Shown in pieces: positions 1,859-12,144 of a DNA stretch of 25,949 nt. The stretch lies in the IMG/VR virus record IMGVR_UViG_3300017722_000321, positions 1-25,949 of that record; one strand, written 5' to 3'. This DNA comes from a virus (lineage: Duplodnaviria; Caudoviricetes). Numbering within the stretch: the stretch's first letter is position 1; each line of letters begins with the position of its first letter. Made by a program: the position numbers and the translations under genes. The notes beneath the pieces are model-generated. The model did no database searches, had not been told where the DNA came from, and saw nothing but the letters and a program-made list of their open reading frames with translations.

Positions 1859-2080
1859 ATGAACGCAACAGCAATTATCAAATTATTGGGTGGATGTACC
1901 CGTGTATCCAAGCTGGTCGGGGTATCTGTCCCAGCCGTATCTATGTGGCAAAACGGTGATATACCCCAAGATAAGCTGATAGTGCTGGCTGCAACGCTAG
2001 AAAAAGAATCGCATGGGCTAATTACCCGTAAGTCGCTTTTTCCCAACACTTACAAATTAATTTGGCCTGAGTTGGAATAG
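1859..2080 (+). CDS. Cro/YdaS-like helix-turn-helix regulator
   Basis: 73 aa with HTH LGGCTRVSKLVGVSVPAVSMW and C-terminal LIWPEL. Divergent from the recombination operon. Confidence 0.85.
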   Translation: MNATAIIKLLGGCTRVSKLVGVSVPAVSMWQNGDIPQDKLIVLAATLEKESHGLITRKSLFPNTYKLIWPELE

Positions 2081-2089
2081 TGCTATACT
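2062..2089 (+). promoter_or_regulatory. Extended -10 promoter driving the non-coding region
   Basis: TTGGCC (2062-67) followed by TGcTATACT (2081-89). Confidence 0.6.
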
Positions 2090-2132
2090 GTGCTGGCAGA
2101 GTGATGTCTGTTTAGTAAGTAGCTCTATACAC

Positions 2133-2229
2133 AAGACCCTTTCGGGTTGTTCTGAGTGTTTAGTAAATGATTTAGAGCCATTTATTAAGCAACATCACCT
2201 TAGAACAACCCCAAAGGGTTTTTTTATTT
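2133..2229 (+). ncRNA. C4/P4-CI-like antisense RNA / attenuator hairpin
   Basis: Outer stem 2133-2156/2199-2222 and inner stem 2157-2169/2179-2191 with G-U pairs. Loop TAGAGC and bulge ACATCAC are complementary to upstream GCTCTA (2122-27) and GTGATGT (2101-07). Followed by a T tract. Confidence 0.7.
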
Positions 2230-2237
2230 CTGCACGG

Positions 2238-2420
2238 TATTGACTGGGCGGGATCCGACACCAGCAGTCAATATACAAGTGCTACTGGGGGATAGTTGAT
2301 GCAACAGCACAAATATAGGTGGCGAAGCTAGTGCCTATTCAACGAACGACTGGCGGGTTCTGTGGCTCCGAAAGGCAAACAGTTGAAGGCGAATCTAGGA
2401 AGGCTAGGTTCGTTCACCAA
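2238..2420 (+). ncRNA. Putative multi-stem structured RNA of unknown family
   Basis: Stems TATTGACTG/CAGTCAATA, GTGCT/AGCAC, ATAGGT/GCCTAT, CGACTG/CAGTTG enclosing a CC-GAAA-GG tetraloop, and GGCGAATCTAG/CTAGGTTCGTT. Mismatches are mostly G-U on the + strand. Confidence 0.55.
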
Positions 2421-2484
2421 AAAGCAAGAAATTACTTATATAGACTTAAATATAACACTAGGGTTAATACCTAATAAATAGTTA

Positions 2485-2513
2485 TTGCATTAGTTAAGAT
2501 AACTTAATAAACT
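2485..2513 (+). promoter_or_regulatory. Rightward promoter with operator in the spacer
   Basis: TTGCAT-17-TAAACT. The spacer contains TTAAG-ATAA-CTTAA (2494-2507). Near copy of the promoter at 10-38. Confidence 0.75.
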
Positions 2514-2983: not shown

Positions 2984-3618
2984 TGACATTTTTAGTCGCT
3001 AACATACCCCCAGTTAAATGTTTTGTGCGTAAAGAGTTCCTTTACAACCATGAGAAAGGACACGGGGAATTAGAGCCTTGTGTGTGGATGACCGCCAAAG
3101 CCATTAAAGGTCAAGCCTTTCGCATTGAATCCATGCTGACTAATTACGGTGCTTTGTACGATAAGCTGCCAATTAGTGCCTATGTTTGGAAGGAAGTAAC
3201 AGAACCCTTGCCGCTGGATTATTTGCAGATATGGGACTGTCTTTCCTACGACATGGCGGTAATCGAAAAGTCTAATCTGCGTGGGCTAAAGGTCAAATAT
3301 TTTGGCAAAGACAGGCAGTTTCACTTTGGCAACTACTTGTTTACCATTGATTTTGCCGATCCTGACAGTAATCGTTTGGATACAACCTTTAGTGAAGGGG
3401 TTGAGGAACATAAGAGTTATAACTTTATAAAGCTAGACAATGGGCAGTTTGCTTGCCAGCCTAACAATCGTTGCCTTTGGTACGATGTATCGCTTGTGCC
3501 AGCCGAACTTAAAACCCCCGACTTTAAAATACCAACAGAAATCTATAGCGTTGAAAACCATGCTAAATGGTCAGCTAAAGATGAATGGTTTTACAACTTT
3601 GACGAGATAACACGATGA
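2983..3618 (+). CDS. Conserved hypothetical phage protein
   Basis: 211 aa from ATG at 2983 (TAATG coupling). Aromatic-rich globular protein, function not recognised. Confidence 0.8.
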   Translation: MTFLVANIPPVKCFVRKEFLYNHEKGHGELEPCVWMTAKAIKGQAFRIESMLTNYGALYDKLPISAYVWKEVTEPLPLDYLQIWDCLSYDMAVIEKSNLRGLKVKYFGKDRQFHFGNYLFTIDFADPDSNRLDTTFSEGVEEHKSYNFIKLDNGQFACQPNNRCLWYDVSLVPAELKTPDFKIPTEIYSVENHAKWSAKDEWFYNFDEITR

Positions 3619-3998
3619 ACTTTGCTGACTTTTATAGCCTTTATCCTCGCAAAATGGGGCGTAAAGACGCTGAACGGGCATGGAACAGGCTAACCCCTAT
3701 CCAGCAAGCAGAGTGCCTAGAAGCCATGCCTAATTACCTTAAATACTGGAAGATTAAAGAAACGGCTAAAGACTTTATACCGTACCCTGCGTCATTTTTA
3801 AACGCTGAACGCTGGACAGACGAACTTGATATTGAGCCGATTGTCAGCAAAAAGCCTGAACTTCCGTTTTACGCTACTGAAGAACTTACCCTTAAAAAAG
3901 CCCAAGAAGTAGGCATTACGCCATACGCAGGTGAGGGTTGGCAGCAGTTAAGGGCAAGGATCAGTCAAAAGATAAAGCAAATTGAGGAACAAACCTAA
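3615..3998 (+). CDS. Phage replication-initiator C-terminal-domain-like protein
   Basis: F..FYSLYPRK.GRKDA..AW and FIPYPASFLNAERWTDE motifs. No N-terminal HTH. Confidence 0.7.
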   Translation: MNFADFYSLYPRKMGRKDAERAWNRLTPIQQAECLEAMPNYLKYWKIKETAKDFIPYPASFLNAERWTDELDIEPIVSKKPELPFYATEELTLKKAQEVGITPYAGEGWQQLRARISQKIKQIEEQT

Positions 3999-4528
3999 TG
4001 GATTTGTTTATGCAAGAGCGTGTTGCTCCTGCGTCACCAACCACAATGAATTTGCGTGAAGTAGGCGTTAATTACGCTATGGATAAAAACATGGATTGGC
4101 ATAGCCGTTTACCCGTTACAAGTCACTCAAACATGATTAGAAACGCTCACAAGGTGTTTTATGGGGCAGAGTATCAAGACCATTGCTTTGCCGTTGCCAT
4201 GTGGACTGATCCAGTAGCAGGTAATCGTATGGCTAAAGACCAAGTATGGCTTGAGTTAAGACGGTTAGCTGTTGCCCCTGATGCACCTAAATTTACCGCT
4301 ACTTGGATGATTGCTAAAATGGTTAAAGACATTAAAAAACGCTTTCCTGATGTTACTAAGCTGGTTTCTTACCAAGATACCGAAGTGCATACAGGTACGA
4401 TATATAAGGCTGCAAACTGGAAATTGGACACAGTTAGCAAGTTTCAATAATGGTCAAATGAAAAACGACAAAGAAACGCATTACAAAGTAAATCAGACAA
4501 AATCAGATGGACACTTGAAATCAGATAG
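3998..4528 (+). pseudogene. Mom-like GNAT DNA-modification protein interrupted by an in-frame TAA
   Basis: Motifs LELRRL, LVSYQD and HTGTIYKAANW. After TAA (4448-50) the frame continues WSNEKRQRNALQSKSDKIRWTLEIR to TAG at 4528. Confidence 0.7.
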
Positions 4529-10811: not shown

Positions 10812-12144
10812 GGATATAAAGCTCAAATACCGCCCTAGAAGCGTTTTTGAGGACTTCCACAGCCGTAAGGAACGCTGGGCAGTAATCGTGGCTCACAGGC
10901 GTTGTGGCAAGACCGTAGCCTGTATTAACGACCTAATCGTCAAAGCCCTTCTAGAAAACAAGCCCCACGCCCAGTACGCTTACATAGCCCCTTTTTACAG
11001 TCAGGCTAAATCAGTGGCTTGGCGGTATTTGGAACGCTTTTCCGAGCCAGTTATGACTAAGGCTAATCAGTCTGAACTATGGGTGGAATTGGTCAATGGC
11101 GCACGGATTAGACTATTTGGGGCTGATAACCCTGATGCACTCCGAGGCAACTTCCTAGATGGCGTAGTGATGGACGAAATGGCTGATATGAAGCCTAGCG
11201 TTTGGGGTGAGATTATTCGTCCCTTATTAGCAGACCGCCGCGGCTGGGCCACTTTTATTGGTACGCCAAAGGGCCACAACGCCTTTTACGATATATACAA
11301 CGAAGCCACTAAAAAGCCAAATTGGTATGTAAAAGTGCTACGGGCAGACCAAACCAACCTGCTGGCGCAGTCAGAACTAGACGATGCCAAGGCAACAATG
11401 TCTGATAACCAATATGAGCAAGAGTTTCTATGTAGCTTTGAAGCTGCCATACTAGGTGCGTATTACGGGCAGGAGATGCGTAGAATCACCGATCTTGAGC
11501 GTATCACTACCATAGACTATGACCCCATGTTCCCCTGCAACACGGTATGGGATTTGGGGTATAACGATTCAACGGCAATTATTTGGTTTCAGGTGGTATA
11601 CGGTGAAATACGGGTGCTGGATCACCACTCAAGCAATGGTCAGCCAATATCCTATTACACAGGTTTACTGGCTCAAAAGGAAGATGAGTTTGGGTACAAA
11701 TATGGCACTCATTGGCTACCTCATGACGCTAGAGCAAAAACACTAGCAAGCGGTGGCAAGAGCATAATTGAGCAAATATCTGCAAAAATTGACATAAAAT
11801 ATCTAAAAATCGTACCAAATCTGTCAATTCAAGACGGAATACAAGCATCACGACTTGCATTAACTCGCACTTGGTTTGATAATAGATGTGAAGAATTAAT
11901 CGAATGTTTGCGTCAATATCAACGAGAGTGGGATGATGATAAAAAAGTATTTAGAGATCGCCCGAAGCACGATTGGACAAGCCACTCAGCGGATGCGTTC
12001 CGCTATCTCAGCATTGTATGGAAAGACGAAGAAAGCCCTATCCTCAAAGATGACCGCATTAAAGGACTACATATTGGGCAAACGGATGTAACTTTGAACG
12101 AAATGTGGAAAGAAACCCCCAAAGTAATTAACAGGAGAATTTAA
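10804..12144 (+). CDS. terL: Terminase large subunit
   Basis: Walker A HRRCGKT, Walker B VVMDE, GTPKG, WDLG and SHSADAFRY. Confidence 0.95.
   Translation: MSRDIKLKYRPRSVFEDFHSRKERWAVIVAHRRCGKTVACINDLIVKALLENKPHAQYAYIAPFYSQAKSVAWRYLERFSEPVMTKANQSELWVELVNGARIRLFGADNPDALRGNFLDGVVMDEMADMKPSVWGEIIRPLLADRRGWATFIGTPKGHNAFYDIYNEATKKPNWYVKVLRADQTNLLAQSELDDAKATMSDNQYEQEFLCSFEAAILGAYYGQEMRRITDLERITTIDYDPMFPCNTVWDLGYNDSTAIIWFQVVYGEIRVLDHHSSNGQPISYYTGLLAQKEDEFGYKYGTHWLPHDARAKTLASGGKSIIEQISAKIDIKYLKIVPNLSIQDGIQASRLALTRTWFDNRCEELIECLRQYQREWDDDKKVFRDRPKHDWTSHSADAFRYLSIVWKDEESPILKDDRIKGLHIGQTDVTLNEMWKETPKVINRRI

Follow-up and report, generated by a model that had tools for sequence, protein, structure and literature searches.

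An extended Betaproteobacteria-1 RNA with a loop that matches its own tail, a candidate origin RNA in the replication module of tailed phages

The window, i.e., the whole stretch of DNA that was analysed, was a linear viral record of 25,949 nt, 76% complete, with terminase, portal and capsid genes. The structured element studied here lies between the leader that follows a Cro-like gene and an AT-rich tract, with a gene for a partial initiator-family protein further downstream (Table 1). The promoter-like site in front of the leader is weak when taken alone because the scan returned 3 sites against 3.5 expected; similar hexamers were seen by eye ahead of homologous leaders. Positions 2104-2107 of the leader pair with 2192-2195 (35 leaders, 100% Watson-Crick, z 8.6-19), and its 5' loop pairs with the bulge of the long hairpin, as judged from covariation. 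The apical loop of this hairpin also has a match, seen by eye, at 2122-2127. The leader is a separate module, as the same family precedes this RNA and three other non-coding classes (B, C and D, below), and the junction with the element falls just after the U-tract. No meaningful Rfam match was obtained for the leader at 2096-2233, which resembles P4 CI or P1 C4-type control and could set copy number.

Table 1. Features at the locus (window coordinates).
Feature	Position	Strand	Basis
Cro-like HTH gene, upstream of the module	1859..2080	+	phrog_35 E 2.6e-9; P22_Cro E 8.9e-7, under Pfam's cut-off
Promoter-like site, extended -10 (TATACT 2084-89)	2062..2089	+	promoter scan
Leader: 5' hairpin, long hairpin (about 2137-2220), U-tract	2096..2233	+	terminator-like site in scan
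Rfam Betaproteobacteria-1 core	2237..2358	+	Rfam match, covariation
P1	2238-46/2265-73	+	covariation
P2	2279-83/2306-10	+	covariation
P4	2327-32/2349-54	+	covariation
Pseudoknot helices	2261-64/2285-88; 2295-99/2339-43; 2315-19/2334-38	+	covariation
3' extension with P5 and P6, outside the Rfam model	2359..2413	+	covariation
P5	2359-63/2379-83	+	92% paired, two-sided changes
Site A, variable P5 loop, candidate guide	2368..2378	+	identity covariation
P6	2389-98/2404-13	+	inner part 81% paired, two-sided changes; less well aligned
Site B, 3' tail copy of site A	2417..2427	+	sequence, identity covariation
AT-rich tract, putative unwinding element	2428..2493		sequence, homologues
127-aa protein, C-terminal part of a phage initiator family only	3615..3998	+	phrog_270 positions 179-262 of 383

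The AT-rich tract that had been noticed 3' of the element was borne out by comparison, being AT richer than its own locus in 60 of 63 homologues. The separate promoter ascribed to the next gene can be read in the sequence (TTGCAT 2485-90, 17 nt, TAAACT 2508-13) but was omitted by the promoter scan. The palindrome TTAAG-N4-CTTAA gave seven matches in the window against 2.1 expected; those at 16-29, 1790-1803, 1845-1858 and 2494-2507 sit at the contig start, at divergent promoters and at the promoter after the RNA, and are likely operators of the Cro-like protein. Further downstream, a Mom-like ORF (3998-4450) stops at TAA 4448-50 with coding-like sequence continuing beyond, so the stop is possibly premature.

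A covariance-model scan revealed a match to the Rfam family Betaproteobacteria-1 (RF02932) at 2237-2358, scoring 103.8 bits (E 7e-19) against a gathering cut-off of 49.4 bits. The match spans the whole model (positions 1-120) with zero non-standard pairs marked, and the three consensus hairpins are all present, with covarying helices. The element is therefore not unclassified, as it had been called in the original prediction, nor does it found a new structured RNA class, an Rfam match having been named beforehand as the result that would speak against novelty. RF02932 was the only Rfam family matched in the region, a tRNA search of the window returned none, and no plasmid matches were found with two homologues as queries. 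The family was reportedly described by Weinberg et al. (2017). The word "Betaproteobacteria" is absent from the main text of that paper (PMC5737381), and a full-text search on the motif name retrieved only unrelated papers. Among open-access papers, none was found on the function of the motif, and none on the extension, pseudoknots, self-matching loop or slot exchange reported below; Betaproteobacteria-1 is a catalogued motif without a functional explanation.

Pattern scans of viral contigs and GTDB genomes recovered at least 222 matches, at least 119 of them unique and full-length, from which 68 representatives with <90% identity were drawn. The GTDB matches comprised 13 loci, several in Betaproteobacteria. 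The search pattern fixed TGGCGAAGCTAG, so that the invariance of this segment in the pattern-found set is built in; it varies in homologues found later via proteins. The cultured Acidovorax phage AP1 carries the element at 11852-12064, 3' of genes annotated as partition-related protein, helicase and primase. Compared to L248, one copy (L242, near 3127) lacks P5 along with half of P6, possibly through a natural deletion or an assembly error.

Comparison of the homologues indicated that the true unit is a multi-helix element of about 190 nt on the + strand, 2238-2427, extending beyond the RF02932 model. The multi-stem character predicted for the + strand was thereby upheld, and of the extent first given (2238..2460) the part up to 2427 is structured, whereas 2428-2460 is flank. 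With 67 sequences aligned to a model built from nested helices only, 92.9% of 3148 cells of the 49-pair structure were paired, with two-sided changes at 40 of the 49 pairs, compared to 29-47% paired in slid controls. The pseudoknot helices reached 96.7, 97.0 and 91.3%, though they had not been given to the alignment model, and when 18,546 column pairs were scanned unsupervised, the helices were again among the top pairs. Across the structure G-U outnumbered A-C (219 vs 43), which fixes the + strand. The structure rests on covariation, because the window sequence by itself folded no better than shuffles (z -1.22).

Several details of the predicted fold could be checked against this alignment. 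The long-range pairing of GTTGA with TCAAC (2295-99/2339-43) is a helix that was 97% paired, with two-sided changes at 5/5 pairs; that of TGGGGGA with TTCACCA fell outside the 60 strongest covarying pairs, and the GAAA tetraloop is variable among homologues and part of the repeat described below. The G5 tract pairs with the P1 loop as the 3' strand of a pseudoknot, and just 34 of 64 sequences have G at position 2288. It was discarded as a ColE1-like G stretch, given this pairing and the absence of a conserved G run. The GTG ORF at 2319-2474 runs open for 51 codons in the window. In 50 of the 68 representatives this frame reaches a stop in fewer than 40 codons, the variation follows base pairs and no protein family matched; the ORF was rejected as a gene, and the chance that it codes for protein is negligible.

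The variable loop of P5 (site A) recurs in the 3' tail (site B) in the same orientation. In the window the sites are 9/11 identical, a match that by itself would not be significant, and the repeat reaches 5' of site A to about 2355. Among homologues the columns covary by identity (2376/2425, z 14.6; 2375/2424, z 10.8; also 2359/2410), with identical bases at 2359/2410 in 76 of 86 and at 2356/2407 in 77 of 86. In the 64 representatives that could be parsed (4 of the 68 were left out as deleted or unparsable), the longest word shared with the element's own tail averaged 6.86 nt, against 4.15 nt for the tails of other homologues, 4.77 nt for the nearest relative's tail, about 4.0 nt for other windows of the same locus and 3.53 nt for the reverse complement. 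The own word was greater than the comparison in 49, tied in 10 and lower in 5 of the 64 (Wilcoxon 6e-9). Held-out homologues (21 kept of 34, <90% identity) gave 7.48 vs 4.06, a value reached in 0 of 20,000 permutations. By this comparative evidence the two copies change together.

Both sites vary fast, even among close relatives, and the A-to-B spacing is continuous at 43-66 nt (one at 85), with no obvious phasing. The exact shared word is short (many homologues have 5-7 nt, the window has 4 nt), and where the loop is short it runs into the 3' strand of P5; in the 300-nt flanks it was slightly raised in both orientations. Its reverse complement was not enriched in the core (2 of 58, 2.8 expected) or in P6 (0 of 58, 1.6 expected), and was found 3 times in the P5 5' strand against 0.8 expected. 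Covariation by identity without an internal partner is what would be expected if the loop paired with the opposite strand of site B. A wobble direction test (loop G opposite tail A) gave 78 vs 8 raw, but did not exceed its composition-preserving control (0.277 vs 0.26; 1215 of 5000) and so lends no support to a direction of pairing.

Two other functions were considered for a folded RNA with such a repeat. A ribozyme or processing element might cut or join at the two similar sites, and the compact multi-pseudoknot core, the strongly conserved linker GGCGAAG, the exchange between U-G (79 of 88) and C-A (8 of 88) at 2320/2333 and a purine-purine covarying contact at 2356/2385 would suit it. The invariance of the core, however, is partly built in by the search pattern, no Rfam ribozyme family matched even at E 5, and the strand order and variable 2385 do not fit the consensus of HDV-like or hairpin ribozymes. 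The ribozyme initially suggested found no support among known family models and is very improbable. Alternatively, the element might regulate the downstream early genes, as a put-like antiterminator or as a conformational switch in which the strand 2383-2388 alternates between two look-alike partners, 2354-59 and 2404-10. This would allow the 5' half of the repeat to be accounted for within the RNA, by the identities at 2359/2410 and 2356/2407 and by 2383/2410, complementary in 72%, and the position in an early operon after cro would be fitting. Such regulation accounts neither for the 3' half of the repeat, for which the RNA offers no partner, nor for the absence of the RNA from initiator-bearing relatives, and a promoter-like site lies 3' of the element in the window; we regard it as quite unlikely.

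The genomic neighborhood pointed to replication. Genes for an SF2 helicase, a Toprim primase, a primase-helicase or an initiator C-terminal domain lay no more than about 4 kb from the RNA in 48 of the 68 representatives. Among the listed loci of ≥4 kb from a viral-contig scan, such genes accompanied the RNA at 28 of 33 loci and chance matches at 3 of 29, context counts that are inflated because the protein queries came from RNA-bearing loci. No replication gene was present in the available DNA of the other 20 representatives, 3 of which are loci of about 600 nt; exceptions include copies between capsid genes (L172), beside housekeeping genes (L289) and near a reverse transcriptase (L286). Among the best 80 loci of a primase search, 23 carried the RNA, about half of them on contigs already in the homologue set, and in 16 of the 23 it starts 2-19 nt after the primase stop. 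The remaining 57 were without it, and many of these had nothing recognisable after the primase. The supposed gating by an attenuator holds for a subset only: a U-tract lies just upstream in 29 of 68 representatives, while many elements directly follow a primase stop. Other common non-coding elements lie right after the primase stop at L380, L387, L388 and L434, at L390 and L392, and at L376 and L382. No protein family was common to all RNA loci, and no recombinase was seen among the recurrent neighbour families scanned (54 proteins in one scan, 39 in another).

The position of the RNA was further compared with loci found through the 127-aa protein. In the best 80, the slot next to this protein held the RNA in 19, another non-coding class in 44 (32 class B, 8 class C, 4 class D) and an initiator gene in one (L334, DUF1376); none held two classes, and 16 fitted no class, 9 of them incomplete. 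The 127-aa protein is possibly a partner of the RNA, but not specific to it. The idea that the RNA specifically replaces the missing HTH of this protein was dropped, as they adjoin in only 19 of the 80 loci and the protein adjoins a full initiator in L334. None of classes B, C and D matched an Rfam family (18 loci scanned). Class B is a non-coding element of about 210-230 nt (e.g., L306:4304-4540, L303, L309, L333, L347) with covarying helices (25 sequences) and an internal CACC(T/C) that recurs 3' with one identity-covarying position (96% vs 50%). Classes C and D are conserved non-coding elements (L299:5262-5460, L296, L300, L301, L314, L340; L302:1951-2180, L304, L305). At L339:7738-7804 an Rfam int-alpA match of 39.5 bits was noted.

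The reciprocal search with the L334 initiator gave 598 related loci, the best 80 of which held 0 copies of this RNA and 0 seed matches to the other slot classes. Thirteen of the 80 carry the same cro family as the window, and there the initiator lies 131-307 nt after cro, mostly right behind a hairpin and U-tract. Genome-wide, DUF1376 was found in 0 of 39 RNA-bearing records (L031 was left out of the genome counts because it has no RNA), and it was rare in the protein-found sets (L334 and L384 only). Of 35 records, 10 matched phrog_270 and 3 matched phrog_678, in each case through the C-terminal part only and once within an open frame of 241 aa, and HTH_36 was never over its cut-off in RNA-bearing records, so that the absence of an initiator covers these four families. 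The lack of an initiator HTH remarked at this locus was confirmed, in that a full-length initiator is absent from the window. DnaB_C, phrog_2249 and phrog_16 were absent from five near-complete window-like genomes. In L384 the DUF1376 gene follows the primase directly, and a second leader type (GGCTAGG...GAAAAG...CCTGCC) lies upstream of many DUF1376 initiators (L462-L532).

This exchange applies equally to an origin acting as DNA, through folded ssDNA, protein-bound repeats or a slipped-strand A/B structure, with a ParB-like protein, the primase or the 127-aa protein as candidate binders. Iterons are usually direct repeats, the form that A and B take, and the G-U excess fixes the strand, not the polymer. 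GCGAAGC in the element is a possible DNA mini-hairpin, but it is broken in variants that keep P4 (2328/2353 is C-G in 72, T-A in 10 and A-T in 5). Motifs of this kind can be ssDNA, according to the main text of Weinberg et al. (2017; PMC5737381). Against a DNA origin stand the fast variation of A and B with unphased spacing, the lack of a protein family shared by all loci, and the promoter- and terminator-like signals upstream, and we consider it unlikely, if less so than catalysis or regulation by the RNA.

The RNA likely starts phage DNA replication, because its knotted fold is longer than catalogued, its loop repeats its tail and it takes the position of the initiator gene in relatives. Comparison of homologues established the fold and the slot as well as the AT-rich tract and the repeat of loop and tail; from these we propose, with about even confidence, a transcription-dependent origin RNA whose variable loop would base-pair to the template strand that lies beneath the RNA's own 3' tail. 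The RNA would be made when the leader is read through or as part of the primase operon transcript, and the knotted core would present loop A, which would re-anneal to the template strand of site B as RNA polymerase passes. This pairing would nucleate a persistent RNA-DNA hybrid and open the AT-rich tract for loading of helicase and primase, presumably phage-encoded in one group and host-encoded in window-like phages; alternatively, RNase H cutting would leave a primer. The leader would set the frequency of initiation. Of the origin or preprimer first suggested, context, slot exchange and the covarying repeat speak in its favor, but the G5 tract is not the ColE1-like element, for which the variable loop is the candidate. 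The promoter scan listed no minus-strand promoter in the element. In the sequencing runs, <30% of the element's words were present; contigs were obtained from four runs, and the two that cover the RNA extend beyond it, although contigs cannot show ends or strand. More broadly, and with doubt slightly prevailing, many tailed phages may swap an initiator-plus-iteron module for interchangeable RNA origins, of which Betaproteobacteria-1, a 190-nt knotted RNA with a reprogrammable loop targeting its own template strand, would be one, at least three further uncatalogued structured elements occupying the same slot. If right, this would give a function to an orphan Rfam RNA and explain how phages without a recognisable initiator replicate; the natural loop/tail pairs are ready material for compensatory tests.

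Compared to the Rfam consensus of Betaproteobacteria-1, which has three hairpins and ends at 2358, the element gains three pseudoknot helices and two 3' helices, though the 2017 supplement may draw more, as well as the loop/tail repeat and the replication context. In IS110 bridge RNAs, an internal loop likewise covaries by identity with a DNA site; here the matched site is the element's own tail, and no recombinase was found among the annotated neighbour families. ARRPOF, GEBRO and PAGEV are also structured motifs (223-349 nt) tied to replication regions, as described in the main text of PMC5737381, but they are plasmid-borne, and the region here matches RF02932 only. The only systems with RNA-mediated initiation named in the papers cited here are two plasmid families, ColE1 and MRB, besides the promoter-driven R-loops of T4. 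MRB plasmids, a second and unrelated RNA-based class (PMC3035462; PMC6380287), share a Rep-free origin with a structured RNA and terminator hairpin (PMC3035462), but are Vibrionaceae plasmids with a 68-nt antisense RNA I, whereas two homologues of the element gave no plasmid match. In ColE1, opening and priming of the origin both fall to a 550-nt RNA (PMC5043065), contact of an rG stretch of RNA II with a template dC stretch is essential for the R-loop (PMC4412123), and the trigger of this contact is still called speculative (PMC5043065). The present element differs in its length (about 190 nt, or 330 with the leader, against 550), in showing no homology in Rfam and plasmid searches, in having a variable loop instead of a fixed G run, in occurring in phages, often beside a phage helicase and primase, and in having no listed promoter for a counterpart of the antisense RNA I. 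Both systems lack a Rep protein, for the present element as judged from four initiator families, have an upstream regulatory leader and contain a stretch of RNA that repeats the non-template strand close to the 3' end (PMC4412123). The element belongs to RF02932 and stands outside the ColE1 and MRB families, though it is likely ColE1- or MRB-like in its working, and, if the proposal is right, it would be a natural form of the ColE1 RNA-template contact with a variable guide.
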